From a virus (taxonomy: Duplodnaviria; Heunggongvirae; Uroviricota; Caudoviricetes), in the IMG/VR virus record IMGVR_UViG_2579778674_000015, positions 1 to 19,525 of that record: a stretch of DNA of 19,525 nt, one strand, 5' to 3'. The translations under genes were made by a program, and so were the position numbers. This document shows, piece by piece, positions 1 through 18,301 of this stretch. The notes beneath the pieces are model-generated. The model made no database searches. It was not told where the DNA came from and saw only the letters and a program-made list of their open reading frames with translations. Each line of letters starts with the position of its first letter. The stretch's first letter is position 1.

Positions 1-512
1 TTCACGCTCAATCTCACGACGAGTCATCAGGCCTTTCCATTGCTTACCGCCAGCGTATATCCAGCGACGTAGCTGGTCACATGCGCCTTTGATATCGCCC
101 TGGTTTATTTTGCGAAGAAGCGTCGATGTTCTGAAATTGCCAGCACCCACGTTGTAGACGAACGAGTAAAGAGCGCCGCGCGTTGTTTCCGGTATATCGA
201 CTTTGATGTACGGGTTAATTTGTCTGGCAACCGTGGCAAGGTCTTTATTCAGGAGGGCTTTGCATTCTGCTTCGGTATACGTTTTACCGAGCATGATGTC
301 TTTTCCGGTGTGTCCGTGACATACAGTCCATACGCCAACGATATCTTTGTATGGTATGTAGCTGACACCTTGCCAACGATATCTTTGTATGGTATGTAGC
401 TGACACCTTCCAGGCCATCGTCACCACTTGGGCCAGTGATTAACACTGATGCTATAGCAATTGCTCCGCCACCAATAGCAGCAGCAACTGCTTTTCGTAA
501 TGATGGAGGCAT
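1..512 (-). pseudogene. R: SAR-endolysin (phage 21 R-type lysozyme), frameshifted by a 38-bp tandem duplication; last ~7 codons lie beyond the window start
   Basis: Minus-strand ATG at 510-512 gives [47 protein letters not shown] (Gly/Ala-rich signal-anchor-release segment, E35 and D44 of the E-D-T triad), then the frame is lost. Conceptually deleting one 38-bp copy (334-371 = 372-409) restores ...[12 protein letters not shown]...[20 protein letters not shown] through to position 1. Start overlaps the holin stop (ATGA). Track ORF 249..512 is only the N-terminal fragment. Confidence 0.85.
334..409. repeat. Perfect 38-bp direct tandem duplication (2 copies) inside the endolysin gene
   Basis: gccaacgatatctttgtatggtatgtagctgacacctt occurs at 334-371 and again at 372-409 with no mismatch. 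38 is not a multiple of 3, so it shifts the frame after codon 47. Confidence 0.95.
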
Positions 513-727
513 TATTCACCTCTCGCAGCCTTGCGCTTATCTTCTTTAATCTTGAAATAAAGGTTTGTCAGGTACGTCAGCAGGCCAAATACCAGACTAC
601 CCAGCACACCTATTGCCGCCCACTGTGAGGGCGTGACTTTATCGAGCAACTGTAAAAACCAGTACCCGGCACTACCTGCTGAGGTGCCATAGGCGACACC
701 CGTTGTTAACTTATCCATGGATTTCAT
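512..727 (-). CDS. S: Pinholin (phage 21 S-type class II holin) with dual-start motif
   Basis: [71 protein letters not shown] (71 aa): two predicted TM segments, charged C-terminus, Met1-Lys-Ser-Met4 dual start. SD-like GAGGTGG upstream of ATG at 727. Track ORF 512..790 is an upstream in-frame extension. Confidence 0.85.
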
Positions 728-794
728 AACCCCACCTCGCAGATGCGGGTGCTGTGTAATGGAAATAAAAAGGCCACCTGACGTGGCCACCAGA

Positions 795-1847
795 TTATTT
801 CCCCACCAGCTCGTTTATCTCTTTCACTGTCTGGTTAAACCGCTCTGACTCAAGCTCAACACCTAAGGCCCGACGCCCCAGCGCCATTGCTGCTTTTATT
901 GTGGAACCGGATCCCATAAAAAAATCAGCAACCAGATCACCAGGTCGACTACTGGCATTGATTATTTGCCTGAGCATATCCGCCGGTTTCTCACACGGAT
1001 GTTTACCCGGGTAGAACTGAACGGGTTTATGCATCCAGACATCGGTATAAGGCACGGAGACTGATACGGAGAAATAGCGCCGGAGAGATTTAAACTCATC
1101 CAGCAATTCAGAATATTTGCGATTCAGTGAATCATAAGATGCCACCAGCTGGTGGTGTGGTTGTTCCAGTTGTTGTTCCTGAAACTTCTCTGCCGCTATA
1201 CGGGAAAACAGTGCCTGTAACTTCCGATAGTCAGCCTCATTCGGCAACTGCCACTGACTGGCACCAAACCAGTGGGAAACCATATTTTTCTTACCTGTGG
1301 CTTCGGCAATTTGTTTTGCCGTTATACCCAGTTCGGCACGAGCATCCCTGAAATACGATATCAGCGGTGCCATTATGTGCTGTTTGAGTTCCCTTTCTTT
1401 TGCCGCATAGCCGTCACTTTTGCCGCGATATGGCCCCTGGTAATGTTCAGCAAACAGAACGCGCTCTGTGGCAGGAAAATATGCGCGCAGACTTTCTTTA
1501 TTACACCCATTCCAACGTCCGGACGGCTTCGCCCAGATGATATGGTTAAGCACGTTGAAACGTTCACGCATCATGATCTCAATATCAGATGCCAGGCGAT
1601 GCCCACAGAACAGGTAAAGGCTTCCGGCAGGTTTTAACACCCGCCAGAACTGGGCCAGACAGTGGTCCAGCCACTTAAGGTAATCTTCGTCCCCTTTCCA
1701 CTGATTGTCCCAGCCGTTGGGTTTCACCTTGAAGTACGGCGGATCGGTAACAATCAGGTCAATGGAATCATCAGGCAGGGACTGAATAAAATGCAGGCAA
1801 TCAGCGTTGATTAAATCAACACTGTTTATTTTTACAGTATTTTTCAT
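795..1847 (-). CDS. Orphan DNA N6-adenine methyltransferase, beta-class (DPPY motif IV N-terminal, FxGxG motif I C-terminal)
   Basis: 350-aa ORF with IVTDPPY near residue 30-36 and FFMGSGST near the C-terminus (motif order IV then I). No adjacent restriction endonuclease ORF. No obvious SD before the ATG at 1847. Confidence 0.8.
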
Positions 1848-1997
1848 GGATCAGTAAGCGTAACTCTGGTAGGCTCACTCTGCTTTTGCGCTAAAGCAGT
1901 GGGCCGTGGTTCGCTTGTGACCAGTAAGCATGAGCGAATGGCTGGCAGGTGCTACCAACACCCACCAGCCGCCCATTTTCACAGCAGGAAACCGCCA

Positions 1998-2225
1998 TTA
2001 CTGGCAGCGTCTGAATTTATTCCCGTACCCGCCGTTATCCTTCGCCAGCCCCGCCAGAACTAACTGAGTCAGTATTAACTGGCACCGGGCTTCGCTTACT
2101 CCGGTAGTTCTCGTCATCATGCGTGGCGTTACCCACTTGTCAGCAGGTAAGAAATGAAGGACTGCGGCGGCGGTTTCTGTCATATCTTGCTGTTTTAGCA
2201 TGTCTTTTTCCCTTCTGGTTAACAT
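1998..2225 (-). CDS. Hypothetical small protein (75 aa), first ORF after the putative late terminator
   Basis: ATG-initiated ORF MLTRREKDMLKQ... with a possible HTH-like segment (TRTTGVSEARCQLILTQLVLAGL). Weak RBS, no recognisable family. Confidence 0.35.
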   Translation of the reverse strand: MLTRREKDMLKQQDMTETAAAVLHFLPADKWVTPRMMTRTTGVSEARCQLILTQLVLAGLAKDNGGYGNKFRRCQ

Positions 2226-2323
2226 GACATACCAGTAACTCTTGTCTAAAAAGCCAGCAAGATAAAAAGTCAGTATTCACGACCACCAGCGTGTTTACTG
2301 TACTGCACCAAGTTTACAGGTAC

Positions 2324-2349
2324 AAAAAAACCCGCTCAGTGGCGGGTTC
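2324..2349 (-). terminator. Rho-independent terminator downstream of the Q-like gene (tR'-like)
   Basis: Minus-strand transcript reads aacccgc-cactga-gcgggtt followed by a 7-U tract (plus-strand A-run 2324-2330). Confidence 0.6.
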
Positions 2350-2394
2350 TTAAATCTTATCAACGGTAGACATACAAAGCCCATCGTTGTGAAA

Positions 2395-2423
2395 ATCTTA
2401 TCCATATTTTTTGAAAAACGCAA
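2395..2423 (-). promoter_or_regulatory. Candidate late promoter (pR'-like) just downstream of Q
   Basis: Minus strand: -35-like TTGCGT (plus 2418-2423), 17-nt spacer, -10-like TAAGAT (plus 2395-2400). Would give a ~60-nt RNA ending at the 2324-2349 terminator. The 10-mer GATAAGATTT is repeated in that leader (plus 2352-2361 and 2393-2402). Confidence 0.3.
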
Positions 2424-2454
2424 GCATCATGTCGTCATCTTCGGCGAAAACCAT

Positions 2455-3207
2455 TTATCTTGTCACCTTTCTCAATTGTATCTCTGCATATGCTTCTTCC
2501 TGCCAGCACTTTGTAACCAGTTTATCAATGACATCTGCATATCCTTTGTACCACTGATAATCCGTCAGGTCTGGTACCAGCTTCTGGACATGAAGCCGCG
2601 CCAGTGTGGTTGGTAAACGGCTAAACCGGTTTCCATTGCAACGCCCACAAACCTTATAAACAGGCGTGCCATGAAGCCGGGTTCTTTTTTCATCCAGGAC
2701 AATACCTTTACCCTTACACCCTCTGCACGCTGTGCTGACTTCTCCCTTACCATGACAATGCTGACACAGTTCCTTCACCCACTCTTCCTTGATAACAGAT
2801 TCCCCGCTTCTGGAGTGTTTCACCACTTCGCGCAATACATTATGAAATCCAGTACCAGCACAATGCTCACAGCGAGCCTTACTTGCCGCAGACCTGGAAT
2901 AATCAGCAAAGGCAAAATTCACAAGGTAAGGGATGATCTGTAACCGGGTTTCTTCACTCAATTTGTTCAATGTCGGGTTATCCAGTGCCATCGCGTAATT
3001 GAGCAGACCTTCAATCGCAAACTGAGGATCCTGAACACCAACTTTTGCCAGGAATAAGGCAAACCCAAGCGGTGCTTTCGACTGCACCATCCCCTGCGCA
3101 GCCATTACATCCGTAATTGTTAAACCACCAGAGCCTGTCGCCGGTGCGTCATCGCTCAATTTTGGAGATTTCGGGGAGTAATATTTCGGTAAGGCTTCAA
3201 GGTTCAT
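2455..3207 (-). CDS. Q-like late antiterminator candidate with four DnaJ-type CxxCxGxG repeats
   Basis: Last gene before the terminator and lysis block. Probable start MNLEALPKYYSPKSPK at 3207 with GGAGAA SD. Contains CEHCAGTG, CQHCHGKG, CRGCKGKG, CGRCNGN. Track ORF extends to 3249. Confidence 0.55.
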   Translation of the reverse strand: MNLEALPKYYSPKSPKLSDDAPATGSGGLTITDVMAAQGMVQSKAPLGFALFLAKVGVQDPQFAIEGLLNYAMALDNPTLNKLSEETRLQIIPYLVNFAFADYSRSAASKARCEHCAGTGFHNVLREVVKHSRSGESVIKEEWVKELCQHCHGKGEVSTACRGCKGKGIVLDEKRTRLHGTPVYKVCGRCNGNRFSRLPTTLARLHVQKLVPDLTDYQWYKGYADVIDKLVTKCWQEEAYAEIQLRKVTR

Positions 3208-3220
3208 GCTCGTTCTCCAC

Positions 3221-4216
3221 TTACGCCAGCACGCCAATTGCCAGCGCACGATCGATAAAACGAAATATCAGCTCCAGCTGGGAGCCATACTTCTCTTCAA
3301 ATGCCACGGTATCCGCATGCAGCTCGTCGTGATGCTTTCTGCACAAAGGCAACACAAAAAGGTCATGCGCTTTTGTTCCCATTCCCCCCTGACCGTGACC
3401 TATCAGGTGGTGGGGATCATCAGCGGGCTTTCCACAACATGCACACGGCTGTGTCTTAACCCAGCGCGTGTACTTTTCATTAACCCAGCGGCGACGTTTT
3501 GGGCGTAACATAAAAGACTCCGGCGACTCCGGATCCACTTTCAGCGCCAGCACCTTTTTCGCCTTATCCTGGATGATGCTGGTGGCAGGAACCGAAGGCA
3601 CAAGGTCACTTTCCCGGGAGACAGACGGCACAACAGGCTTCGGTAATCTCAGTGCCTTACGGGCTGCACTTTCCGGTAAGGCATCCGCCAGGTCATTACG
3701 AATCAGCCACCAGCACAGTTCCGGCATTGTCACAACGTGACTGTCATCAAAACCGAGATCCCGACGCACAACAGACAACACCCAGCGGGCACAGTTATCC
3801 GTTGCCATTGATTCCAGCCGTTCCGTGAACTGATCGCGCAGCTGGTTATCGCAGTGCCAGCACAGACGGATTGCGCCCGGAGCGTGTCGCATTGTGGTCA
3901 TGTTCTCGCTGTGCCAGTCGGAATGAGGCCACTGGCAGCCTTTTTCACGAAGTAACCAGCTTTCAAGACATTCCACGCCACCAGCACGACGGATCACTGC
4001 CTCATTGCGGAACACGGCCCGAACGGCAGGATCATCCGCCAGCGGTTGTGATGCCGCCGGAACTGCACCACTGGCGAAAGATGAATAACGTTCCGGCTCA
4101 GGCTCCAGCAGGACACGCCCCTGCATAAACAGGGGCATCAACTCTGAACCTGGCCTGAACAATACGATCCCCATACGCGGGGCAATTTCAGGGGTCAGTA
4201 GTGCTCTCACGGTCAC
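3221..4216 (-). CDS. HNH-motif nin-region protein (DUF968 / NinG-like)
   Basis: 331-aa ORF; C-terminal CACCGKPADDPHHLIGHGQGGMGTKAHDLFVLPLCRKHHDELH resembles HNH/His-Me finger. GTG start at 4216 sits 1 nt after the upstream stop; true start uncertain. Confidence 0.5.
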   Translation of the reverse strand: MTVRALLTPEIAPRMGIVLFRPGSELMPLFMQGRVLLEPEPERYSSFASGAVPAASQPLADDPAVRAVFRNEAVIRRAGGVECLESWLLREKGCQWPHSDWHSENMTTMRHAPGAIRLCWHCDNQLRDQFTERLESMATDNCARWVLSVVRRDLGFDDSHVVTMPELCWWLIRNDLADALPESAARKALRLPKPVVPSVSRESDLVPSVPATSIIQDKAKKVLALKVDPESPESFMLRPKRRRWVNEKYTRWVKTQPCACCGKPADDPHHLIGHGQGGMGTKAHDLFVLPLCRKHHDELHADTVAFEEKYGSQLELIFRFIDRALAIGVLA

Positions 4217-4217
4217 C

Positions 4218-5027
4218 TCAATGAACGGTATCGAGCAGCTTTAACAGCTCAGGGAATCGGGATTCGAAGAAATGCGGCTGCGTCTCGCGCGGATTTGCGG
4301 GACTGGTGATATTCTTGCCGAACATGCAGCCTTTCGCTGTCAGCGACCAGAATTTTTTGATGTTGTTAATCGCGGTACGGCTGTATCGTTCGCGCTGCTC
4401 GACGATCCCCAGCTTCACCATCTGGTGATATGCCTGATTAGCTGTCAGGCGGATACCATACTGCTTCAGCAGTGCACTCAGTGACAGCGTGGGGCGGCTT
4501 GAGCCATCAGGCGCGTCAGCAGGAGCATCAATGGCATAGCGTGGTGCCAGATTCGGTAAGCCAACAGCCTCCTGGAGTTTCTGACAGGCCCCAAGCACAG
4601 ATGAGTTAGACAGGTTTAACTCCCGGCGCATAAAGTCCAGCAGAATCACGCCAGCCTGCATCTTGTCAGCAGCCTGCCCGGATAATTTTTCCGGTGCGCT
4701 GGTTACCATATCGAAAGTACGGATCACCTTCAGATGGAATGACGGGCTGATCCACATTGCATAGGCATACACCAGTTCCTTGCAGACATAAGTTCCCCGT
4801 TCATTTCCCCCATGAATCACACTCACCGGGTCAACACCCAAATTCTGGGTGTTGGTCAATTCATGAACAAGTTCAACAGTTTGTTGGCTGGAAAGAAACT
4901 TTCCTGGCTCCTTGGTTCTGGCATTTGCACCAGATGCTACTGCTGCGCGATGCAGATCGTTCAGGCTGTAACGCCCATAAACATCACGACGAACTTCAAT
5001 ACCATCAATAACCATCAGATTATTCAT
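4218..5027 (-). CDS. KilA-N domain protein (Roi / antirepressor-like)
   Basis: 269-aa ORF with strong SD (AGGAG, 7-nt spacer). N-terminal ~110 aa (IDGIEVRRDVYGRYSLNDLHRAAV...YVCKELVYAYAMWISPSFHLKVIRTF) looks like a KilA-N/APSES DNA-binding fold. Confidence 0.5.
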   Translation of the reverse strand: MNNLMVIDGIEVRRDVYGRYSLNDLHRAAVASGANARTKEPGKFLSSQQTVELVHELTNTQNLGVDPVSVIHGGNERGTYVCKELVYAYAMWISPSFHLKVIRTFDMVTSAPEKLSGQAADKMQAGVILLDFMRRELNLSNSSVLGACQKLQEAVGLPNLAPRYAIDAPADAPDGSSRPTLSLSALLKQYGIRLTANQAYHQMVKLGIVEQRERYSRTAINNIKKFWSLTAKGCMFGKNITSPANPRETQPHFFESRFPELLKLLDTVH

Positions 5028-5046
5028 ACTTCGTTTCTCCTCTTAA

Positions 5047-5436
5047 TCAGGCGGCTGCACCCGCCGGTTTCTCATACTTACTGATAGTGATCTCGACCTT
5101 CCCTTTCGGGATAACCGGTCCCCACTCCACCAGCATTCTTTTCACCTGTCTGTCGTCTTCCCACACACCCGCGTGGGTCAACGCGTCAAACAGCGCCTTG
5201 TTATAGTTGTCCAGATCGCGGATCCGGTTATCCGGAGGAAACAACACGATCTCCACTGAAGCAGGTGCCGACGTTGGTTTTGGCAGACGACGTAACTGCT
5301 CAACTATTGCTGCGCACGCCGCGCTCTGAAATTTTCGCCCCGCCGCGCTTATCAGGCTCTTACCAGCAAATGCCCCTTTGTTGGGGTGTCGCCAGTACGT
5401 GTTCACGCTGGGCGGAAAAGGCAGGATCAGCTTCAT
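5047..5436 (-). CDS. rusA: RusA-family Holliday junction resolvase
   Basis: 129 aa, MKLILPFPPSVNTYWRH...RDLDNYNKALFDALTHAGVWEDDRQV matches the RusA signature. Start overlaps the upstream stop (ATGA). Confidence 0.8.
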   Translation of the reverse strand: MKLILPFPPSVNTYWRHPNKGAFAGKSLISAAGRKFQSAACAAIVEQLRRLPKPTSAPASVEIVLFPPDNRIRDLDNYNKALFDALTHAGVWEDDRQVKRMLVEWGPVIPKGKVEITISKYEKPAGAAA

Positions 5437-5759
5437 GCTTTCAGGCCTCTCTCATGTAACCAGTGGGTTGCACGCAGCCTTGCGTTTTCCTCACCGGCAA
5501 GCAGTGAGCGGATAATCCCGACCGCCTCGCTGTCGTCGTCCTTCACCGCGGTATGAAGCGTTATCCCCCGGGCCACGCCACGCTTTATCGTGATGACACC
5601 TTTTTTCTCCAGTGCGCGAAGATGCTCCACCGCTGCATTCACTGAACGGTATCCCAGCATGGTTGCCACCTCCTGATTGGTTGGCGGGAAGCCACGTTCT
5701 TTCTGGTAAGAAATCAGCATATCCAGCACCTGCTGCTGGCATTGAGTTAATGTCGTCAT
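5433..5759 (-). CDS. LexA-like DNA-binding domain protein lacking the S24 peptidase domain
   Basis: 108 aa; QQQVLDMLISYQKERGFPPTNQEVATMLGYRSVNAAVEHLRALEKKGVITIKRGVARGITL parallels the LexA N-terminal winged HTH. No Ser/Lys peptidase segment follows. ATGA-coupled to the upstream gene. Confidence 0.65.
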   Translation of the reverse strand: MTTLTQCQQQVLDMLISYQKERGFPPTNQEVATMLGYRSVNAAVEHLRALEKKGVITIKRGVARGITLHTAVKDDDSEAVGIIRSLLAGEENARLRATHWLHERGLKA

Positions 5760-6409
5760 GCCGCCATCTCCCTGACCAGTTTTTCCGCCTGCTGGCGAAC
5801 CTGCGCCAGAAAGGCCTCACCACATGCCTCAAGTTCATCGCGCCCGATGTAGCTGATTGCCGGTCCCTTCCAGGTCTTGTCGAAAACAGCAATAGCACCA
5901 GCGAAGAAAGCGCCTGTCGGCACCTGCTTCTCGTCCTTCGGGATAAACCAGGCTGGCAGTTCAAAACCAATACGCCCGCGAATAAAAGCAATATGGTCTG
6001 CATCTTCCGGCCACCAAACTTCGCTGGTGGCAGCTTTGATCAGGAAAACATAGCGCCCGCCTTTATCACGCATAGCACTGGCATGTTTCATGATGTAACG
6101 CATGCCGGTGATGTATTGCCCCTCATGCTGACTGGCGCGGCTGTACGGGGGATTACCAAAGGCAGCACCTTTAAGCTCCGCAAGACGTTCTGACCAGTCA
6201 TGCGCCAGCGCGTTGTCTTCCGCAGTGTAATAAGCGGCACATTTGGCGTTATCACCATCAGTAAACAGATCCAGAACAAACGGGCCAAACAGGGTGTTAA
6301 TTCCCCAGAAAATGTTGTCCGGCGTGCGCCACTGATCGCCCACTTCCTTCAGTTCATGGGCTGGTTTGTTCCGCAGCTCCACCAGCGCCTGGCAATATTT
6401 ATTACTCAT
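5756..6409 (-). CDS. Phage Dam-like N6-adenine DNA methyltransferase (NPPY motif)
   Basis: FGNPPYSR motif in a ~217-aa nin-region protein. Start taken as MSNKYCQ at 6409, overlapping the upstream stop (TAATG); the track's 6442 start is the alternative. Confidence 0.75.
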   Translation of the reverse strand: MSNKYCQALVELRNKPAHELKEVGDQWRTPDNIFWGINTLFGPFVLDLFTDGDNAKCAAYYTAEDNALAHDWSERLAELKGAAFGNPPYSRASQHEGQYITGMRYIMKHASAMRDKGGRYVFLIKAATSEVWWPEDADHIAFIRGRIGFELPAWFIPKDEKQVPTGAFFAGAIAVFDKTWKGPAISYIGRDELEACGEAFLAQVRQQAEKLVREMAA

Positions 6410-6897
6410 TAAGCCCCCACGTAATTCCCTGACAGATACCACTCTTCACCCGATGCAGCGCGCTTGCTGCTTTTCCGTAAGCACCGCTCACGATGCGCCA
6501 GAAAATTGTTTCGTTCTGGCTGGGAGTGGCTTTCACGGAATGCCGCCATCCACACCGTTGCAGCTCGACGGAATAAGCCCCTGGACTCCAGTTCTTCAGC
6601 CTGGCGGGTCAGGCACAAAATCACCCGGGGGTCGTTAGTGCCGACATAGAAATTGCGCACAGGTCTGGTTTCACGAACAGATTGTGGTTCCGGCTCCTGC
6701 GCTCTCTCAGTCAGGCGCGGGAAATGTCTGCGTGTATCTCCTTCACAACGGTGAGCCACACGCCCACTCTGACGTAACTTGCTTGCTGACTGCAGAACGC
6801 GCTGCCGTGAGTAACCAGCAAAAGCATCCGCAATGTCTCCGGAAGTACACCCCGGATGGGCTTCAATGAATTTCTGAACTTCATTCAAAAGACTCAT
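6409..6897 (-). CDS. Hypothetical protein with N-terminal winged-helix-like segment, basic C-terminus
   Basis: ORF immediately after the initiator-like gene. ATG at 6897 (MSLLNEVQKF...) preferred over the track's GTG at 6903. No family recognised. Confidence 0.45.
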   Translation of the reverse strand: MSLLNEVQKFIEAHPGCTSGDIADAFAGYSRQRVLQSASKLRQSGRVAHRCEGDTRRHFPRLTERAQEPEPQSVRETRPVRNFYVGTNDPRVILCLTRQAEELESRGLFRRAATVWMAAFRESHSQPERNNFLAHRERCLRKSSKRAASGEEWYLSGNYVGA

Positions 6898-6899
6898 GA

Positions 6900-7718
6900 T
6901 CACCCCCTGAATCCTGCCGGGATCTGGCTGTAGTCCACGTTGTCGTAACTGGATTTGAAGTACGGGTCCTCACGTCTGGCTGCAGATACCGCAGGAACTT
7001 CCCAGGATTCTTCGAAATGACGATCCGGACCAAAGAACGTGACAGCCTGTTTCACAAATTGTGTGCCGCTGTTACCCATCGCAGATACCCAGCCCGCATA
7101 GCGTTTCACACCTTCCAGCATGGTTTCGGGGTTTACCCCCTCATTCAAACGGGCTTTCCAGGCTTTGAAGGCTGCAGATTTTGAATTGCCACCAGCACGT
7201 TTGGGATATGCCAGCCATGCCTGCTCAAACTCCGGAGAATATTCCGGTCGGTTTGAACGAACTCGCACGGACTCATCAACTGATGCACCAACAGCTATTG
7301 GTTCATTGACTGGTTCTTTGACTGGTTCAAAAGAGTGACTGGTTCTGGGTGAATCTCCTGCACTACCCCCTGGTGCAACTCCTGCACTACCTGGTGAATT
7401 TGCTGCACCAGATAGTGAATTATTTGCACTACCACCTAGTGAATCTCCTGCACCATCCAGATGAAGGAGATAGATATTACTTGAGTTACCTTTTTCACCT
7501 TTCCGGGTGACTTTTTTTACCAGCCCGGACTCACAAAGGGCCGCAATATGATTCATCACAGAACGTTTGCTAATCTCGCACTGGTCAGCAATATGCTGGT
7601 AGCTGGGCCAGCACTCACCCTGATCGCTGGCATTATCAGCCAGCTTGATCAGAACCAGTTTTCGCAATGGATTACCCACTCGAATTTTCATCGCTTTAAC
7701 CATCAGCTCCATACTCAT
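6900..7718 (-). CDS. Replication initiator-like protein (N-terminal winged HTH, repetitive Gly/Ser/Ala/Pro linker, C-terminal domain)
   Basis: 272 aa; GGAGGTG SD. N-terminal LRKLVLIKLADNASDQGECWPSYQHIADQCEISKRSVMNHIAALCESGLVKK is an initiator-type wHTH. The linker is encoded by the DNA repeats at 7307-7458. Lambda O analogy is positional. Confidence 0.5.
   Translation of the reverse strand: MSMELMVKAMKIRVGNPLRKLVLIKLADNASDQGECWPSYQHIADQCEISKRSVMNHIAALCESGLVKKVTRKGEKGNSSNIYLLHLDGAGDSLGGSANNSLSGAANSPGSAGVAPGGSAGDSPRTSHSFEPVKEPVNEPIAVGASVDESVRVRSNRPEYSPEFEQAWLAYPKRAGGNSKSAAFKAWKARLNEGVNPETMLEGVKRYAGWVSAMGNSGTQFVKQAVTFFGPDRHFEESWEVPAVSAARREDPYFKSSYDNVDYSQIPAGFRG
7307..7458. repeat. Iteron-like direct repeats inside the initiator gene (candidate origin)
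   Basis: TGACTGGTTC at 7307, 7319 and 7336; then five 21-24-bp units starting 7348, 7372, 7393, 7414, 7438 (ggtgaatctcctgcacta / ggtgcaactcctgcacta / ggtgaatttgctgcacca / agtgaattatttgcacta / agtgaatctcctgcacca). Confidence 0.5.
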
Positions 7719-7951
7719 GCTGCACCTCCGAGATGCTTCATGTTTTTTCCGGAGCGAAAGGTTATAAGCGGCATACTGACGCGGTAATTACGGCCCAGCG
7801 GTTCACAAATCACCTTCTGACATTCACGGTCAACCAGGCTAACACGTAGAACATGCCCTGCAGGCGTGGTGTACCACTGCCCAACTGTAGGAATTGATGT
7901 TTTTTTACGCTGAAATAAACGGTAAATGTTGAGGATCAACGGATTAAGCAT
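7715..7951 (-). CDS. Hypothetical protein (78 aa)
   Basis: GGAGG SD 8 nt before the ATG; stop overlaps the downstream start (ATGA). No recognisable motif. Confidence 0.45.
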   Translation of the reverse strand: MLNPLILNIYRLFQRKKTSIPTVGQWYTTPAGHVLRVSLVDRECQKVICEPLGRNYRVSMPLITFRSGKNMKHLGGAA

Positions 7952-8780
7952 GACGATGCCCTCCGCTGATATTCAGGAGACGGTGAATATGAAAATTAGC
8001 CTTATCCGCCAGACGAATACGTTCAGCCTGCAAGTTAATAAGGGTTTCTACCAGAACCTGATGCGCCTGCGGATCCGAAAGAGTTACCTTGCGCAGAGCA
8101 CGTAGTGCAGTTGTTACATAACTGAGTTTATGTAAGTCTTCATCATTCAGACGAGTGAGGGCTGGGACAGTAGCCATGATGGCAGCCTCCTTGATCGGTG
8201 AAATACTTCCACCACCGGAAACGCCAATTTCGCTGGTGGTGAACTGAACGGGGTTGGCGTAACCGGTGATCAAGGAAACCGGCGCATCTTTCGATGCCCC
8301 CGCCCAGCCCACCATAACTTTGATGTGAGCAAATGCGGACGATAAAAAAGACGCTGGCGCGTCATATATCGCCTTGATCAATTCCAGGACGCCAATCCCG
8401 GCACCCGCTTTATAAGGTGCCTGAACAGTGTAACGTCCCGGAATGGCAGAATCAATGTGCTGGTGGTCCTTCACACTCAACAAAATCACGCCTGAATTTC
8501 CACAAAGGACTAAAGCACTCATGCGGGTAGTCTTTGCGAAGATAGATAACGCGCTGTGTTTCTGGTTCCCAACGAATAACATGGACATAAAGCCCTCTTC
8601 CGTCACGAAACCAGCGGTTAAGTTCCCGCACAACTCGCCCCCCACAGTCAGGTAAAGTTCTCTGTGGTTACTTACAGCCAGGTGATTTGGTAATCTGCAT
8701 TCATGCCGTAACAACAGGTGTTCAGCGACACTGACCACCAGCTGTTGCGACAAACGGTTATTTGCCGTTAAACTGTTCAT
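7944..8780 (-). CDS. Hypothetical protein (278 aa) in the early-right operon
   Basis: Long ORF with GGAG SD, ATGA-coupled to the upstream gene. No Walker or other catalytic motif recognised. Confidence 0.45.
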   Translation of the reverse strand: MNSLTANNRLSQQLVVSVAEHLLLRHECRLPNHLAVSNHRELYLTVGGELCGNLTAGFVTEEGFMSMLFVGNQKHSALSIFAKTTRMSALVLCGNSGVILLSVKDHQHIDSAIPGRYTVQAPYKAGAGIGVLELIKAIYDAPASFLSSAFAHIKVMVGWAGASKDAPVSLITGYANPVQFTTSEIGVSGGGSISPIKEAAIMATVPALTRLNDEDLHKLSYVTTALRALRKVTLSDPQAHQVLVETLINLQAERIRLADKANFHIHRLLNISGGHRHA

Positions 8781-9340
8781 GCGTTAGTTTCTCCACAGAC
8801 ACAAAACGCCACGACGCCCGGAGCTGCACACTCGCGGGCGTCACTCTTTTCTGGAGCGCAAAAGATTTTGTAGACCAGTGCTGCATGCTCTTGGAGCTTC
8901 GAAATTGACAGATACAACTCATCATTAATTGCTGTCTGCTCGTGTGGCTCCACGACCCCATCTTCGATTGCCGAACGAATCTGCTTTGAGTAATTCCCGA
9001 TCTGTTCGATGACTTCCAGCAGGCGCTGGTTTATATCGGCGTTCTCTACTTCCTCAATTTCAGGAAGCGATACGAACACCCCACCAGCAGACTGTGCGAC
9101 AGCATCCGCAATGTAGTGAGTGCCAGCCGCGCGCTGTAAAACCATTGCCCATCCCAGCGGGAAAATCTGATCGCCATCGGCACGAAGGCGGTTAAATAAT
9201 GCGTTCTCTGTTACATCCAGCCAGTCAGCTGCTTCAGCGTAACCACCCGGCAACGCTGCGATAGTTTTTCTGACAGCTTTCACGTACCACTCAGGCTGTT
9301 TTTCTACTTTCCAGTGATACTTACCCACGGTTAGCCTCAT
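8777..9340 (-). CDS. Hypothetical regulatory protein in the CII position
   Basis: 187-aa ORF immediately after the Cro-like gene; assignment is by position only. Confidence 0.4.
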   Translation of the reverse strand: MRLTVGKYHWKVEKQPEWYVKAVRKTIAALPGGYAEAADWLDVTENALFNRLRADGDQIFPLGWAMVLQRAAGTHYIADAVAQSAGGVFVSLPEIEEVENADINQRLLEVIEQIGNYSKQIRSAIEDGVVEPHEQTAINDELYLSISKLQEHAALVYKIFCAPEKSDARECAAPGVVAFCVCGETNA

Positions 9341-9371
9341 CGTTCTGTGGTTAAAAATTGAAGGTGTTCTG

Positions 9372-9572
9372 TTAATCTTTCGGATAGATATCCGGTCTTA
9401 AGTCAGATTTCGTAATTGCACCTGACGTGCATTGCTCAAGTTTTTTCGCCAGCACAAAACTGGCTTTTTTATAACCATTGAAAACCAGCCGTAAGTAGCC
9501 AGGTGTTGAGCCAACTTTTCCGGCCAACTCGCCCTGCTGTTCTTTGGTTAAAGAGTCCCAATACGCTTTCAT
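9372..9572 (-). CDS. Cro-like HTH regulator
   Basis: 66-aa protein MKAYWDSLTKEQQGELAGKVGSTPGYLRLVFNGYKKASFVLAKKLEQCTSGAITKSDLRPDIYPKD, strong SD GGAGGT 9 nt upstream, divergent from the repressor. Track ORF 9372..9875 is an extension overlapping the repressor start. Confidence 0.6.
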   Translation of the reverse strand: MKAYWDSLTKEQQGELAGKVGSTPGYLRLVFNGYKKASFVLAKKLEQCTSGAITKSDLRPDIYPKD

Positions 9573-9662
9573 ACAATATGTACCTCCGATATACATATTA
9601 CATGATTGAAATGAACCTTCAAGATACTTGTACCTTATCGGTACAAAGGTTTTAATTTCGTT
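9573..9662. promoter_or_regulatory. Divergent immunity-region promoters and operators (pR-like / pRM-like)
   Basis: Inverted repeat TTGTACC-n5-GGTACAA at 9628-9646; ATATGTA-n9-TACATAT at 9576-9598 enclosing the cro SD. Minus-strand -35 TTGAAG (9617-9622) and -10 TAATAT (9595-9600). Plus-strand -10-like TTTAAT (9651-9656) places a start near the cI ATG with no SD, suggesting a leaderless cI mRNA. Confidence 0.45.
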
Positions 9663-10337
9663 ATGAAAACAATCCATGACATCCGGCGGTCTAACGCCAG
9701 AAAACTGAGAGATGGTGTTGGCGGGAATTCTTCCTTTGCCACCATGATTGATCGCGAGCCAACCCAGACCAGCAGGTTTATGGGAGATGGTGCTACTAAA
9801 AATATCGGTGACAGCATGGCGCGGCACATCGAAAAATGTTTCGACCTGCCTGTCGGATGGCTTGATCAAGAACACCAGACCACGAACATCACAAAAAAAC
9901 CTGATGTTTCAATCACTAACAAACAAATAACGTTAGTCCCTGTCATATCATGGGTACAGGCCGGAGCATGGAAAGAAGTTGGCTATTCTGAGGTTGATTT
10001 GAGCACAGCAGAAACTTACCCCTGCCCTGTACCCTGTGGCGAAATGACTTATATCTTGCGGGTGATTGGTGATTCAATGATTGATGAGTACCGCCCTGGA
10101 GACATGATTTTTGTTGATCCCGAAGTCCCTGCCTGCCACGGTGACGACGTTATTGCATTGATGCACGATACAGGCGAAACCACCTTCAAGCGATTGATAG
10201 AAGATGGAACACAGCGTTATCTCAAAGCATTAAACCCAAACTGGCCTGAGCCTTACATTAAGATTAACGGTAATTGCTCTATAATTGGTACAGTGATTTT
10301 CTCGGGAAAACCAAGAAGATACACAATAAAGGCCTAA
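9663..10337 (+). CDS. CI/C2-type phage repressor (N-terminal HTH, C-terminal S24 LexA-like autopeptidase)
   Basis: 224 aa; C-terminal ...LVPVISWVQAGAWKE...LRVIGDSMIDEYRPGDMIFVDPEV...TFKRL...INGNCSIIGTVIF with Ser in GDSM and Lys in TFKRL; N-terminal XRE-type HTH. Confidence 0.85.
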   Translation: MKTIHDIRRSNARKLRDGVGGNSSFATMIDREPTQTSRFMGDGATKNIGDSMARHIEKCFDLPVGWLDQEHQTTNITKKPDVSITNKQITLVPVISWVQAGAWKEVGYSEVDLSTAETYPCPVPCGEMTYILRVIGDSMIDEYRPGDMIFVDPEVPACHGDDVIALMHDTGETTFKRLIEDGTQRYLKALNPNWPEPYIKINGNCSIIGTVIFSGKPRRYTIKA

Positions 10338-10349
10338 TCAATATTTATG

Positions 10350-10372
10350 AACCTGCTTCGGCAGGTTTTTTT
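10350..10372 (+). terminator. Rho-independent terminator after the repressor gene
   Basis: aacctgc-UUCG-gcaggtt followed by a 7-T tract, starting 13 nt after the cI stop. Confidence 0.7.
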
Positions 10373-10376
10373 ATAC

Positions 10377-10409
10377 TTGACAATGTACCCATGAGATACA
10401 TAATGTATC
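10377..10409 (+). promoter_or_regulatory. pL-like promoter with overlapping palindromic operator
   Basis: Consensus -35 TTGACA (10377-10382), 16-nt spacer, -10 CATAAT (10399-10404). Palindrome GATACAT-a-ATGTATC (10395-10409) overlaps the -10; ATGTACC (10384-10390) repeats the pR-region half-site. Confidence 0.5.
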
Positions 10410-10822
10410 CAAAAGAAACATGAGGCAGGCAAGATTCAAACAAAATTTGGTTGTAACACGGCGTATGGCACATGCGTCGTTAGCGGTCTGGGGACGTTAA
10501 AGGGGACAATCCACTTCTTGCTCGGGCAAACAAACCAGGTAGCCGGAATGTGCAAGTCAATGATGATGCTGATAAGACGCCTAACCAGCGTGGCGATCCG
10601 GTTTGACGCCTGGGAAGAGACCAGGGTGCAACGATGAGGGCATTTATAGAGCCGCGACAAAGTGTGGTGCCGTAACTGGCTAAGTGCTCTCAGCGTTGTG
10701 GTAATCCGCGAAATGGCGCGGCGGTAAGTATGGCGGGGTTACTCTTTCCCCGTTGAGGACACCGGATTGTCAGGTTGACCATACGCCTGAGTGACAACCC
10801 CACCACAACAGCCACTGCTTTG

Positions 10823-10868
10823 GCGGTACCAGTTTGTACACTTGCTTCCGGCTGGTACCGCTCTTTTT
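10823..10868 (+). terminator. Rho-independent terminator within the early-left leader
   Basis: Perfect 10-bp stem GCGGTACCAG / CTGGTACCGC (10823-10832, 10852-10861), 19-nt loop, then TCTTTTT. Confidence 0.55.
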
Positions 10869-10957
10869 ACAAAATAGAGAAGAGCATCACCGGACGACGG
10901 GCTCATAACCCAATCCATCCGGGCGGCTGCCACCGCAGGTGTTCTTCTCTGTTTTGT
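10869..10957 (+). other. Long-range 17-bp RNA helix (two G-U wobbles) enclosing 55 nt, upstream of the first early-left gene
   Basis: ACAAAATAGAGAAGAGC (10869-10885) pairs with GTTCTTCTCTGTTTTGT (10941-10957). The two non-Watson-Crick positions are G-U in the plus-strand transcript but C-A mismatches on the other strand. Confidence 0.35.
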
Positions 10958-11005
10958 GGAGAAACCAACCGACCTTGCAGGGTCGATATGATGAGGAGCA
11001 GCAAA

Positions 11006-11368
11006 ATGGCTAGCGAACGCAGTACTGATGTGCAGGCATTTATCGGGGAGCTGGACGGCGGCGTATTTGAAACCAAAATCGGCGCAGTTCTCAGTGAAGT
11101 CGCTTCCGGTGTGATGAACACGAAAACCAAAGGTAAGGTCTCACTCAACCTGGAAATCGAACCATTTGATGAGAACCGTGTGAAAATCAAACACAAACTC
11201 TCATATGTTCGCCCGACTAACCGCGGGAAAATTTCCGAAGAAGACACCACCGAAACGCCGATGTATGTCAATCGCGGTGGTCGCCTGACTATTCTGCAGG
11301 AAGACCAGGGACAATTACTGACTCTTGCCGGTGAACCTGACGGAAAACTACGCGCAGCAGGTCATTAA
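11006..11368 (+). CDS. Hypothetical early-left protein
   Basis: GAGGAG SD 7 nt before ATG at 11006 (MASERSTDVQAF...). The track ORF starting at 10775 crosses the terminator and helix, so the upstream extension is unlikely. Confidence 0.55.
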   Translation: MASERSTDVQAFIGELDGGVFETKIGAVLSEVASGVMNTKTKGKVSLNLEIEPFDENRVKIKHKLSYVRPTNRGKISEEDTTETPMYVNRGGRLTILQEDQGQLLTLAGEPDGKLRAAGH

Positions 11369-11433
11369 TATCGTTCTTAATTAACTGATTATTTATCTCA
11401 TCACTGAATATCTTTATATAGTGAGGACTTATT

Positions 11434-12258
11434 ATGTCTCAGAACTTAGACGCAACCACAATTAATCAAATCCATGCCCTTATTTCTGCTCAGGGTGTTA
11501 ATGAAATTATCAGTAATATTGGTGCCGATGCTGTGGCATTGCCTGAGAATTTCCGCATTCATGATCTGGAAAAATTTAATTTAAATCGCTTCCGTTTCCG
11601 TGGTGCGCTTTCCACTGCCAGCATCGATGACTTTACCCGTTATTCTAAAGATCTTGCAGATGAAGGCACCCGCTGCTTTATCGATGCTGATAATATGCGT
11701 GCCGTCAGTGTACTTAACCTGGGTACTATTGATGAACCAGGTCACGCAGATAACACCGCCACTCTCAAACTGAAAAAGACAGCACCGTTCTCTGCCCTGT
11801 TGTCTGTTAACGGCGAGCGTAACTCCCAGAAGTCACTGGCAGAATGGATTGAAGACTGGGCCGACTACCTTGTGGGCTTTGATGCTAATGGTGACGCTAT
11901 TCAGGCAACAAAAGCGGCTGCGGCAGTCCGTAAAATCACGATTGAAGCAAACCAGACCGCTGATTTTGAAGATAATGACTTCAGCGGCAAACGCTCCCTG
12001 ATGGAGTCTGTCGAAGCGAAGACCAAAGACATTATGCCAGTGGCATTTGAATTTAAATGCGTTCCGTTTGAAGGTCTGAAAGAACGTCCGTTTAAATTAC
12101 GCCTCAGCATTATCACTGGCGATCGTCCTGTACTGGTTCTGCGCATTATTCAGCTGGAGGCGGTGCAGGAAGAAATGGCTAACGAATTTCGTGATCTGCT
12201 TGTTGAGAAATTCAAGGACAGCAAAGTAGAAACCTTTATTGGTACTTTCACCGCCTGA
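11434..12258 (+). CDS. DUF2303-like protein (resembles E. coli CPS-53/KplE1 YfdQ)
   Basis: 274-aa ORF with SD GTGAGGA. Size and gene context recall the KplE1 yfdP-yfdT block; this is from memory, not a search. Confidence 0.55.
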
Positions 12259-12385
12259 TTTCATTACTGCAAATGCCCCTGCGGGGGCATTTATGGAAAC
12301 GTAATTTACTCAATAATCGCCGGATGGTGAGGGATTCTTTTTACCAGAATTCAGCGCGGTGCAGCGCATATACGTGGAGAACAAA

Positions 12386-12922
12386 ATGTCATTTATCAAA
12401 ACTTTTTCTGGGAAGCATTTTTATTATGACAGGATAAATAAAGACGACATCGATATTAACGATATCGCGGTTTCCCTTTCAAATATCTGTCGCTTTGCCG
12501 GTCATCTTTCGCACTTCTACAGCGTCGCCCAACATGCGGTTCTTTGCAGCCAGCTGGTGCCGCAGGAATTTGCTTTTGAAGCGTTAATGCATGATGCAAC
12601 AGAAGCGTATTGCCAGGACATTCCCGCACCACTGAAACGCCTTCTTCCTGACTATAAACGGATGGAAGAAAAAATAGACGCCGTAATCCGTGAGAAATAC
12701 GGGTTACCCCCGGTTATGAGTACACCCGTGAAATATGCCGATCTCATCATGCTGGCAACCGAACGCCGCGATCTCGGGCTTGATGATGGCTCTTTCTGGC
12801 CTGTACTGGAAGGCATCCCGGCAACAGAGATGTTCAACGTGATTCCACTGGCACCGGGCCATGCCTACGGGATGTTTATGGAACGTTTTAACGATTTATC
12901 GGAGTTACGCAAATGCGCATGA
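12386..12922 (+). CDS. HD-domain phosphohydrolase (YfdR-like 5'-deoxynucleotidase family)
   Basis: HFYSVAQH and HDATEA metal-binding motifs; GGAG SD 7 nt before ATG at 12386 (track starts at a GTG at 12359). Confidence 0.7.
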   Translation: MSFIKTFSGKHFYYDRINKDDIDINDIAVSLSNICRFAGHLSHFYSVAQHAVLCSQLVPQEFAFEALMHDATEAYCQDIPAPLKRLLPDYKRMEEKIDAVIREKYGLPPVMSTPVKYADLIMLATERRDLGLDDGSFWPVLEGIPATEMFNVIPLAPGHAYGMFMERFNDLSELRKCA

Positions 12923-13275
12923 ATGTTTTCGAAATGGAAGGGTTTCTTCGCGGGAAATGTGTACCGCGAGATCTGAAAGTGAACGAAACAAATGCTGAGT
13001 ACCTGGTACGTAAATTCGACGCGCTTGAAGCTAAATGTGCGGCACTGGAAAACAAAATAATACCAGTGTCAACTGAACTGCCACCAGCAAATGAAAGTGT
13101 TCTGTTATTTGATGCTAATGGAGAAGGCTGGCTGATTGGCTGGCGTTCTCTCTGGTACACCTGGGGACAAAAAGAAACCGGAGAATGGCAGTGGACATTT
13201 CAGGTCGGGGACCTTGAAAACTTCAATATCACTCACTGGGCAGTAATGCCCAAAGCGCCGGAGGCTGGAGCATAA
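12913..13275 (+). CDS. Hypothetical protein (DUF551-like Trp-rich C-terminus)
   Basis: 120 aa, GGAG SD, start overlaps the upstream stop. C-terminal GWLIGWRSLWYTWGQKETGEWQW...THWAVMP. Confidence 0.55.
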   Translation: MRMNVFEMEGFLRGKCVPRDLKVNETNAEYLVRKFDALEAKCAALENKIIPVSTELPPANESVLLFDANGEGWLIGWRSLWYTWGQKETGEWQWTFQVGDLENFNITHWAVMPKAPEAGA

Positions 13276-13895
13276 TGACCACATTTACCAATAAAGAACT
13301 GATTAAAGAAATCAAAGAACGAATCAGCAGCCTAGAGGTTCGAGACGATATTGAGCGCCGTGCTTATGAAATTGCTCTGGCATCGCTGGAAGAGGAGCCG
13401 GTGGCATGGCTGCATTCAGACAATGGCTTAGGTATTCCGGCAATAACCAGGAGCAAAAACATTGCTGACAGTTGGTTATCAATGGGCTGGTATGTTCAGC
13501 CGCTATATATAGCCAAGCCAGTACTGGTGGTGCCAGATGCTCGTCCGTCTTTAAATAATGGCATAGTCGGTTTTGATGAAGGCTGGAACGCCTGCCGCGC
13601 CACCATGCTTCATGGTGCCAAACCTGTAAGCCAGACTTACAAGTTGAACAAGCTGTCGGGCAACTCTCCGGTAACTCAGGATGGTTGGATAAGCTGTAGT
13701 GAGCGAATGCCGAACGATAAACAGTATGTTTGGTGTTGGGGTAAGTCTTACGGCTGGACTGAGTGCGATACCTTCGAAGGGTATTACGATTGGTCGAGAA
13801 ACAAATGGTGGGCAGTTACTGACGATGGGGAAGAACCGGCATCGAAAGTAACCCACTGGATGCCGCTACCGGAGCCACCGCAGGAGGTGAAGTAA
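13275..13895 (+). CDS. DUF551-like protein
   Basis: 206 aa; start overlaps the upstream stop (TAATG). C-terminal WISCSERMPNDKQYVWCWG...WWAVTDDGEEPASKVTHWMPLPEPP. Confidence 0.55.
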   Translation: MTTFTNKELIKEIKERISSLEVRDDIERRAYEIALASLEEEPVAWLHSDNGLGIPAITRSKNIADSWLSMGWYVQPLYIAKPVLVVPDARPSLNNGIVGFDEGWNACRATMLHGAKPVSQTYKLNKLSGNSPVTQDGWISCSERMPNDKQYVWCWGKSYGWTECDTFEGYYDWSRNKWWAVTDDGEEPASKVTHWMPLPEPPQEVK

Positions 13896-14089
13896 TGAAC
13901 AACTTAATGACAACTAAACAAGTCGCCGACTTCTGTGGCGTTTCAGTATCGACCGTTCTTCGCTGGAACAGCGTAAACAGGAGAACTGGCCAGAAATACA
14001 GGCCTGACTTTCCAGATCCTGATATTAAATCCTGCCCAAATAAATGGGCATCACGCAAGATATACAGGTTTGCTGGAGTTATTGAGTGA
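13895..14089 (+). CDS. Excisionase / AlpA-family HTH protein (putative Xis)
   Basis: 64 aa with strong SD AGGAGGTGA. TTKQVADFCGVSVSTVLRW is a MerR/Xis-type HTH. Last gene of the plus-strand block. Confidence 0.5.
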   Translation: MNNLMTTKQVADFCGVSVSTVLRWNSVNRRTGQKYRPDFPDPDIKSCPNKWASRKIYRFAGVIE

Positions 14090-14124
14090 TGGGTATTAGC
14101 TCATATCAGAACTAATACCCATCA
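14087..14124. repeat. Perfect 13-bp inverted repeat (hairpin, 12-nt loop) at the xis-like stop codon
   Basis: TGATGGGTATTAG (14087-14099) and CTAATACCCATCA (14112-14124). No flanking T/A tract on either strand. A second weaker inverted repeat GACACAG...CTGTGTC follows. Confidence 0.6.
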
Positions 14125-14291
14125 ATGACACAGAGCCAACTACCCACCCTGTGTCAGGGGCTAACTTTTAACACCATAATTCACCGCTAGATAAAAACTG
14201 TATTGCATTGCACGAGCGGCGCAGCATTATCAGTTAGAGTGTCTTTACCTTGTTAGGCTCCACAGTTCGCACTGTCCAACGCCTGTCACTT

Positions 14292-18119: not shown

Positions 18120-18169
18120 TCCTTTTCCTCCTATCCAATGTGCACGTTCATTCGAGTAAATGAAGGCAA

Positions 18170-18215
18170 GGGGTTACATCTTATTATACCGACCGTGCAA
18201 ATCCGGCTTCCTAGC
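18170..18215 (-). promoter_or_regulatory. Candidate promoter for the SIR2 gene in the int-SIR2 intergenic region
   Basis: Perfect -10 TATAAT on the minus strand (plus 18183-18188), ~60 nt upstream of the ATG; only a poor -35 (TTGCAC-like, wrongly spaced). Confidence 0.25.
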
Positions 18216-18301
18216 AAGCTACTTTACTTGCCAACTCATAATGTCCGAACTCCGAACAAAGCGGACTGCTAGATTTGATTGCGTTCTAGCTACGCAAAAT
18301 A

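Follow-up and report, generated by a model that had tools for sequence, protein, structure and literature searches.

A non-specific adenine methyltransferase of the M.EcoGII clade predicted in the late operon of a lambdoid prophage, and a conserved leader before its gene

The 19,525-nucleotide (nt) stretch of DNA analysed here, positions 1 to 19,525 of the IMG/VR virus record IMGVR_UViG_2579778674_000015 and referred to below as the window, comes from a lambdoid Escherichia coli prophage and carries two genes for N6-adenine methyltransferases (MTases), which like all other genes relevant to this account lie on the minus strand. The first of these, at 795-1847, is read as encoding a non-specific enzyme that would be made from the second protein-coding gene of the Q-dependent late transcript and would serve anti-restriction, and the second, at 5756-6409, as encoding a phage Dam-family enzyme; a probability of roughly 0.8 is given to this reading as a whole. 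An original prediction made from the sequence had placed two solitary N6-adenine methyltransferases at these positions, and both are borne out by family models and by their motifs, DPPY before FMGSG in the first and NPPY in the second. The start codon of the first gene is preceded by a conserved leader RNA that may be new; the rest of the finding is known, the M.EcoGII family having been described already and its biology being ordinary.

Identity and predicted specificity of the first methyltransferase

The open reading frame (ORF) at 795-1847 is intact, the coordinates given for it in the original prediction are exact, and its product matches Pfam N6_N4_Mtase PF01555 with E=2.2e-42 (145.9 bits vs a cutoff of 26.7). 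The DPPY motif occupies residues 35-38 (window 1734-1745) and FMGSG residues 310-314 (window 906-920), giving the order motif IV, target recognition domain (TRD), motif I, which is that of the beta class. Compared with experimentally tested proteins, the product is 80.5% identical to M.EcoGII over its full length, 89% to the reconstructed ancestor Anc291, 87% to Anc289, and 71% to SUPREM/Anc284, values that are perhaps off by about 1% given that the reference sequences were machine-read from the PDF of Supplementary Table S1 of PMC11551740. The TRD region (residues 160-237, a predicted four-helix segment) is 77% identical to that of M.EcoGII.

M.EcoGII has been reported to methylate adenine whatever its context, in double-stranded DNA, RNA, and single-stranded DNA (ssDNA), and to act on DNA:RNA hybrids in vitro (PMC5778455). 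All five reconstructed ancestors that could be purified act on DNA and RNA, and non-specificity was confirmed for M.EcoGII, Anc291, and SUPREM (PMC11551740). EspM, an extant homologue that falls between the Anc291 and Anc289 nodes, is active and has been described as a non-specific adenine methyltransferase (PMC13540299). Because it is bracketed by these tested non-specific enzymes, the window protein is assigned on sequence comparison to the M.EcoGII clade, and it too is probably non-specific toward adenines, acting without a recognition motif.

The gene is widespread. Many E. coli genomes, that of enterotoxigenic E. coli (ETEC) H10407 among them, carry identical copies; near-identical ones are found in phages Ayreon, mEp460, cdtI, and SfV (as orf48), and copies of 93% identity in Shiga toxin (Stx) 2c-converting phages. 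Relatives were found by sensitive blastn in 2741 of 5426 complete E. coli genomes, the set to which the other E. coli prevalence counts given here also refer, and a protein search returned 3063 relatives across Enterobacterales.

The breadth of substrates accepted by M.EcoGII raises the alternative that the relevant target is not double-stranded DNA but RNA or ssDNA, such as late phage or host transcripts or intermediates of replication and packaging. Its in vitro activity on RNA, hybrids, and ssDNA fits this idea, as does a 12-fold variation of RNA activity among the ancestral variants. The authors of the ancestral reconstruction nevertheless regard RNA activity as a neutral by-product, given that DNA activity varies among the variants only about 3-fold and with no trend, and the locus contains no pointer to an RNA target, so that this alternative is considered highly improbable.

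Position of the gene in the late operon

Read 5' to 3' on the minus strand, the late region consists of the antiterminator gene Q, an intrinsic terminator, a small ORF, a 150-nt spacer, the MTase gene, a terminator-like hairpin, and a pinholin gene (Table 1). The original prediction was thus right to place the first methyltransferase gene after the Q-dependent terminator and before the lysis genes. The terminator at 2320-2351 has a predicted folding energy of -13.9 kcal/mol (z=-3.67), equalled by none of 200 shuffled sequences. The hairpin at 763-788, found by a terminator scan, folds with -12.2 kcal/mol (z=-2.5), equalled by 3 of 200 shuffles. At the positions matching both elements, terminators are annotated in SfV and Ayreon. 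The late promoter must fall within 2352-2454, where a candidate picked by eye may consist of a -35 element TTGCGT at 2418-2423 and a -10 element TAAGAT at 2395-2400; a promoter scan yielded no site exceeding chance (2 sites vs 4.0 expected).

Table 1. Features of the window discussed in the text (all on the minus strand)
Feature	Position	Strand	Details
S21-type pinholin, first lysis gene	512..727	-	71 aa, dual start MKSM; PF04971 E=3.6e-35; RefSeq essD
Terminator-like hairpin	763..788	-	GGCCAC-GUCAG-GUGGCC then UUUUUAUUU; between MTase stop codon and holin start
M.EcoGII-clade beta-class N6-adenine DNA methyltransferase	795..1847	-	350 aa, ATG start; PF01555
Conserved structured leader RNA	1848..1989	-	About 145 nt; ends at MTase start codon
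Putative hairpin at end of small ORF	1989..2009	-	CGCUGCCA-GUAA-UGGCGG then UUU; small-ORF stop codon in loop; read from the sequences
Small ORF, stand-alone winged helix (modelled)	1998..2201	-	67 aa; alternative start 2225 gives 75 aa; good Shine-Dalgarno AAGGGAAAAAGAC-ATG
tR'-like intrinsic terminator	2320..2351	-	AACCCGC-CACUGA-GCGGGUU then U7; 104 nt past Q stop codon
Late antiterminator Q	2455..3207	-	250 aa from RefSeq start; longest ORF to 3249; Antiterm PF03589 E=8.8e-53; PHROG 127
Phage Dam-family solitary methyltransferase	5756..6409	-	217 aa from ATG; nin-like region

The same succession of Q, terminator, small ORF, MTase, terminator, and holin is found in SfV, Ayreon, cdtI, and mEp460, and the order recurs in an Stx phage, in Klebsiella prophages with another Q family and another holin, and in Erwinia. 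The Stx phage (locus L085) runs from Q through the small ORF and MTase to three tRNA genes (5060-5440), stxA, and stxB, which would put a non-specific methyltransferase and the Stx toxin on one late transcript. The Klebsiella loci L086-L088 carry a PF06530-type Q, the small ORF, the MTase, and a Phage_holin_3_1-type holin (PF05106), and the Erwinia locus L089 carries Q, an opposite-strand AAA_13 gene, the MTase, and a holin. A limited tblastn panel of 66 diverse loci with 4-kb flanks, the figures from which are lower bounds, detected Q upstream in at least 42 of the 66 and lysis genes downstream in at least 44.

This distribution bears on the label of moron, under which the original prediction had filed the gene as an occupant of the cargo slot that holds stx in other phages. 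In the Stx phage L085, the methyltransferase gene co-occurs with stx, upstream of it in the same transcript. Its position is conserved across genera. Its G+C content, 0.48-0.50, is like that of the flanking sequence, it has no promoter of its own above chance, and its homologues are silent in lysogens; a downstream hairpin is present. Since the gene co-occurs with stx, resembles its neighbours in G+C content, and shows no promoter above chance, it is not filed as a moron here. It behaves as a core late gene, conserved near the start of the late operon and able to exist there alongside stx.

A separate observation concerns the Erwinia locus L089, where an 798-residue AAA_13 ATPase gene (1182-3578; also seen in L116) lies between Q and the MTase gene and the small ORF and leader are absent. 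This gene may be defence cargo in a real moron position.

Predicted expression and biological role

The promoter pR' of lambdoid phages is constitutive, its transcripts are stopped at tR' in lysogens, and Q gives read-through (e.g. PMC7547250). Prophage location and a position behind tR' are established for the MTase gene, and from this locus anatomy together with the knowledge of pR', tR', and Q the enzyme is predicted to be made only after induction. As long as the phage is lysogenic, transcription from the late promoter would end at 2320-2351, and a harmful enzyme would remain unmade. Upon induction, Q would make RNA polymerase resistant to the terminator, and the polymerase would then traverse the winged-helix ORF, the leader, the MTase gene, and the hairpin at 763-788 into the lysis and morphogenesis genes. 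The second enzyme, encoded in the nin region upstream of Q, would add a specific mark, possibly at GATC, to replicating phage DNA, and the first would methylate adenines across that DNA shortly before packaging. Progeny genomes might thus enter the next host shielded from the many restriction enzymes, of Types I, II, and III, whose action N6-methyladenine blocks.

Published data on close homologues fit such a scheme. No methylation signal of M.EcoGI or M.EcoGII was seen in the native strain (PMC5778455), homologues that are silent in lysogens gave slow-growing and unstable clones when expressed constitutively (PMC5778455, PMC12707154), and M.EcoGII was expressed in E. coli deleted for mcrC-mrr (PMC5778455). 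Transcription of M.EcoMV, the homologue in strain EC958, was found to be well below that of dam (PMC4659465). A place as the first enzyme of a Q-dependent late transcript would offer a structural explanation for the silence of the family in lysogens.

The original prediction had left the role between protection of phage DNA and epigenetic effects on the host. Because the homologues are silent and are harmful when expressed, the former is favoured and the latter, which the low transcription of homologues likewise makes unlikely, is disfavoured. The epigenetic option holds that the gene encodes a sequence-specific orphan Type II enzyme, expressed in the lysogen and reprogramming the host. It accords with the RefSeq/NCBI name 'site-specific DNA-methyltransferase' given to such proteins, with the existence of prophage methyltransferases that have epigenetic effects, such as M.EcoGIII and PamA, and with a weak promoter-like site (9/12 matches) inside the small ORF at 2116-2143. 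That site does not rise above the chance level of the promoter scan, the gene lies behind tR', the protein is close to M.EcoGII and closer still to tested non-specific ancestors, and its homologues are poorly transcribed and give no sign of methylation in native lysogens. A specific lysogenic enzyme is accordingly regarded as very unlikely.

The same considerations change how the scheme could be refuted. The original prediction would have been abandoned if no prophage-dependent methylation motif were detected in the lysogen; for an enzyme that is late and non-specific, the absence of such a motif is the expected outcome and would refute it falsely, so that the proposed test is misleading.

Search for a partner nuclease

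The view that neither enzyme belongs to a restriction-modification pair was upheld. No restriction endonuclease gene lies beside either methyltransferase, the neighbours of the first being the holin gene and the 67-residue winged-helix ORF. PADLOC methyltransferase models match both enzymes, and no PADLOC nuclease model matched any of the neighbouring genes tested. RusA, also encoded in the window, is a junction resolvase.

A hidden partner was sought in the DUF968/HNHc_6 protein encoded at 3221-4216, on the supposition that the first methyltransferase guards phage DNA against a co-encoded nuclease as part of a restriction-modification or self-immunity pair. This protein does contain an HNH-like nuclease region (PF16784 E=4e-6; PHROG 96, 'HNH endonuclease'), its gene lies two genes upstream of the MTase gene, and DUF968 is detectable upstream in 31 of the 66 panel loci, again a lower bound. 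Q and tR' nevertheless stand between the two genes, DUF968 is far commoner than the MTase family (3724 vs 2741 of the 5426 E. coli genomes), the Klebsiella loci L086 and L087 and the Erwinia locus L089 carry the MTase without it, and DUF968 has no PADLOC defence match. The candidate was rejected as an unlinked gene, and a pairing of this kind appears highly unlikely.

The second methyltransferase

The second gene, at 5756-6409, is likewise intact and at exactly the coordinates first given for it. Its product matches Pfam Dam PF05869 (E=1e-45, 155.7 bits vs 28.1) and the NCBIfam equivalog TIGR01712, phage_N6A_met (255.6 bits vs a cutoff of 97.05), with NPPY at residues 86-89 (window 6143-6154). 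A GTG extension of the frame to 6442 is not used by RefSeq. The Dam-like character ascribed to this protein by the original prediction therefore stands as far as the family is concerned. K-12 retains a truncated remnant of the gene in prophage CPS-53, yfdM (91 aa; L170 6113-6388), which is identical in 89 of 89 residues and ends at NPPY. The gene is present in 2120 of the 5426 complete E. coli genomes, and Stx2c phages carry a copy of 99.5% identity. Both methyltransferases occur together in 37 of 80 near-identical viral loci, and the pairing is therefore common.

Within the PF05869 family, T1 Dam acts on GATC. The Staphylococcus aureus prophage enzyme PamA acts on the same site according to a reported DpnI assay. 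GATC is on this basis the leading guess for the specificity of the second enzyme, one that cannot be transferred with confidence from T1 Dam or PamA given the low identity to both. As a proxy for specificity T1 Dam was set aside, belonging to the same Pfam family yet sharing so little sequence, and the frequency of GATC in the window was uninformative as a clue. Hia5 and Hin1523 were ruled out as relatives, being alpha-class Dam relatives, and no structurally solved relative turned up.

Two observations concern the surroundings of this gene. It is flanked by a gene for a 108-residue protein that comprises a LexA DNA-binding domain and nothing else (5433-5759, with a 4-nt overlap at 5756-5759) and by the PerC-like yfdN (6409-6903, with a 1-nt overlap at 6409), all on the minus strand. 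The nin-region methyltransferase differs in Klebsiella loci that have the same late MTase, being of the MT-A70 type in L086 and L087 (2441-3085) and of the D12 class in L088 (698-1507); this suggests a recurrent design in which a variable early methyltransferase is combined with a conserved late non-specific one. The 4-kb flanks of the tblastn panel are too short for scoring a methyltransferase in the nin region.

Evidence that weighs against the proposed reading

Several points count against the picture of a late, non-specific, protective enzyme accompanied by one of the Dam family. The non-specific activity of the window allele, which is held with high confidence, would be carried over from assays of homologues, and no methylome of virion DNA from a phage with this gene was found in the literature. 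The MTase start codon has no Shine-Dalgarno sequence and follows a folded leader, and expression may consequently be low or conditional. The hairpin at 763-788 parts the gene from the holin gene, an arrangement that fits an insulated cassette as well as read-through. DNA heavily methylated at adenine would be open to attack by Mrr and other nucleases that depend on methylation, so that protection would come at a cost. The endolysin gene of the window is frameshifted, and this prophage may never finish a lytic cycle. With regard to the second enzyme, its identity to enzymes acting on GATC is 24% for T1 Dam and 37% over residues 29-149 for PamA, and the number of GATC sites in the window is unremarkable, with 70 observed vs 86 expected.

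A conserved leader RNA before the first methyltransferase

The spacer upstream of the MTase gene is conserved across Enterobacterales. In a set of 80 diverse loci, made up of one genome per species with MTase identities of 62-93%, it was found by single-sequence nhmmer in 57, including loci without a detectable small ORF; a count over 78 diverse loci likewise gives 57. It is detectable in 2690 of the 5426 E. coli genomes. Divergent E. coli alleles are 80-90% identical in the spacer vs 60-80% in the MTase gene. In an alignment of the window with the Stx phage and Klebsiella, the spacer is visibly better kept, and the protein of the small ORF is only 50-60% identical. The leader is absent from the Xenorhabdus and Photorhabdus loci, one Erwinia locus, and one Pantoea locus; in those of Xenorhabdus and Photorhabdus a shorter and different spacer of 76-101 nt is present where the small ORF was found.

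Two predicted structures were compared. RNAalifold recovered only part of the structure from the MAFFT alignment, for which reason the helices were drawn up manually and verified by counting pairs. The resulting fold J consists of a helix P1 (UGGGC/GCCCA) around a long hairpin P2 and a helix P3 (CGCU/AGCG), followed by P4 (GCUUU/AAAGC) and P5 (AGUGAG/CUUACU). On the MAFFT alignment its covariation score was 0.146 vs 0.083 in shuffled alignments, with 0 of 500 as high and slid controls at or below 0.092. On a model-based alignment, which is biased toward the structure to which it was fitted, 93.8% of cells are paired, 17 pairs are changed on both sides vs 7.8 in shuffles (0 of 500 as high), and the score is 0.159 vs 0.087 (0 of 500 as high; slid controls at or below 0.060).

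Minimum-energy folds of single sequences mostly correspond to a different structure, fold S, with the helix AUGGGC/GCUCAU, a long helix in which AGGUCA pairs with the UGAUCY abutting the AUG, and the helix AAGCG/CGCUU. On the alignment fitted to fold J, the helices specific to fold S reach 90.8% pairing, and 9 of their pairs carry changes on both sides vs 5.7 in shuffles (0 of 500 as high), with a covariation score of 0.146 vs 0.120 (slid controls at or below 0.089). The comparison shows, within the bounds of such alignments, covariation in both of two mutually exclusive predicted folds.

A covariance model of the leader, R1, gave one match per locus in 65 of 90 sources, with scores of 95-171 bits (56 in L147). 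These matches always end at the MTase ATG and lie on the coding strand, and elsewhere in 827 kb nothing scored above 22 bits. Matches in Photorhabdus (17-22 bits) are shifted into the coding region and were dismissed as not credible. A 33-codon ORF within the leader (MGGWWVL...) was likewise rejected as coding, since in most relatives the frame closes after 7 codons. Rfam 15 contained no match to the leader at the gathering threshold, nor any at E<=10 over 1780-2460. RefSeq has no feature under any of the listed E. coli matches, and literature searches with leader sequence strings and for 'EcoGII-like' regulation returned nothing relevant.

The two exclusive sets of helices, the missing Shine-Dalgarno sequence, and the pairing beside the AUG together suggest that the leader is a translational switch gating the MTase. 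In its full form this proposal is tentative and is rated somewhat short of even odds: a previously undescribed cis-regulatory leader would switch between two folds and so gate the translation of a harmful enzyme, maybe through the winged-helix protein or S-adenosylmethionine/S-adenosylhomocysteine. The leader might instead be an element of RNA processing or stability, a separate small RNA, or a signal at the DNA level. Kinship among the sequences inflates the shuffle statistics given above, and the leader begins just past a terminator-like hairpin, so that it is perhaps an independent transcript. These alternatives are at odds with an element that lies on the coding strand and whose end coincides with the MTase AUG in every case, with G-U pairs on its sense strand, and with the covariation of both helix sets, one of which pairs the six bases 5' of the AUG; taken together they are judged doubtful, with a chance of about one in four.

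The small winged-helix protein

The small ORF lies directly upstream of the MTase gene in 55 of the 80 diverse loci. Its product belongs to PHROG 331, of unknown function (E=3e-26), and has no match in Pfam; some homologues are named 'TrmB family transcriptional regulator'. AlphaFold2 confidently models the protein (pLDDT 87) as a winged helix that stands alone, with the topology H-H-H-E-E. A fold search with this model yielded only generic winged-helix matches, the best being to Z-alpha domains (TM 0.82-0.83) and the winged helices of IclR and TrmBL2, all with E values of 0.004 or higher, and a DpnI-type m6A-reader domain is not found among the top 50 matches listed. Relatives without the small ORF have a terminator-like hairpin and U tract at the position corresponding to 1989-2009. 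That this protein regulates the leader, or binds nucleic acid in concert with the MTase, is speculation based on analogy. The leader and the small ORF nonetheless provide a testable handle on how a phage may control an enzyme that is harmful at the wrong time.

Genome setting

The window spans the junction of the early right and late regions, the early left arm, and the integrase gene. Prophages of several complete E. coli genomes, that of ETEC H10407 among them, match it over its whole length at 99.9-100% identity. At the identical locus, RefSeq names the two enzymes 'DNA-methyltransferase' (795-1847) and 'phage N-6-adenine-methyltransferase' (5756-6409).

Three further observations were made in the window. 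A perfect 38-bp tandem duplication at 334-409 (334-371 = 372-409) puts the signal-arrest-release (SAR) endolysin gene out of frame when compared with the intact rrrD homologue of NZ_OX030701, and the prophage copy in the window is probably lysis-defective for this reason. A gene for the anti-phage defence sirtuin Dsr1 (1275 aa, 14292-18119 on the minus strand; NF041818, 2056 bits; PADLOC Dsr1) lies as prophage-borne defence cargo between the early left genes and the integrase gene (18302-19525). A long ORF at 7944-8780 on the minus strand, divided by RefSeq into an ash-family gene and a DUF4222 gene, contains tandem Rfam matches above gathering to C4 antisense RNA (8232-8319, 82 bits) and isrK (8344-8420, 64 bits), a pair that suggests an antisense immunity or anti-repressor module like those of P1 and Gifsy.

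Comparison with known systems

The closest known counterparts are M.EcoGII and M.EcoGI from prophages of E. coli O104:H4 C227-11 (Murray et al. 2018, PMC5778455), which are alike in motif order, length (349-350 aa), prophage location, and lack of a nuclease partner. The window allele is nearer to Anc291 and Anc289 than to M.EcoGII itself. P0017, 92.5% identical to M.EcoGII, has the same small ORF and leader upstream as the window. Neither the Q/tR' context nor the small ORF or leader is described in the original M.EcoGII papers. M.EcoGII is now used in the laboratory to footprint chromatin and to study RNA methylation, and its origin from a prophage and the anti-restriction role presumed for it are already in print.

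Stx and other morons occupy the same late-operon interval under the control of pR', Q, and tR' (PMC7547250), from which the MTase gene differs in behaving as a core gene and not as swappable cargo. 

A further parallel is the Com-mom system of phage Mu, in which a broad adenine modification is likewise late, silent in lysogens, and harmful if mis-expressed, and in which a small gene stands directly upstream of the modification gene. The start region of mom lies within an RNA structure. The features of the window that resemble this system are the frequent upstream small ORF and a predicted fold S that would pair the 6 nt 5' of the AUG, with some covariation. The proteins themselves differ: Mom has an acyltransferase fold and Hia5 is an alpha-class Dam relative, both unrelated to the first MTase of the window, and Com is a zinc finger, in contrast to the modelled winged helix of the small protein, for which a role as activator would be purely an analogy. 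Non-specific methyltransferases such as Hia5 and Hin1523 have been found in the mom slot itself (Drozdz et al. 2012, PMC3299994).

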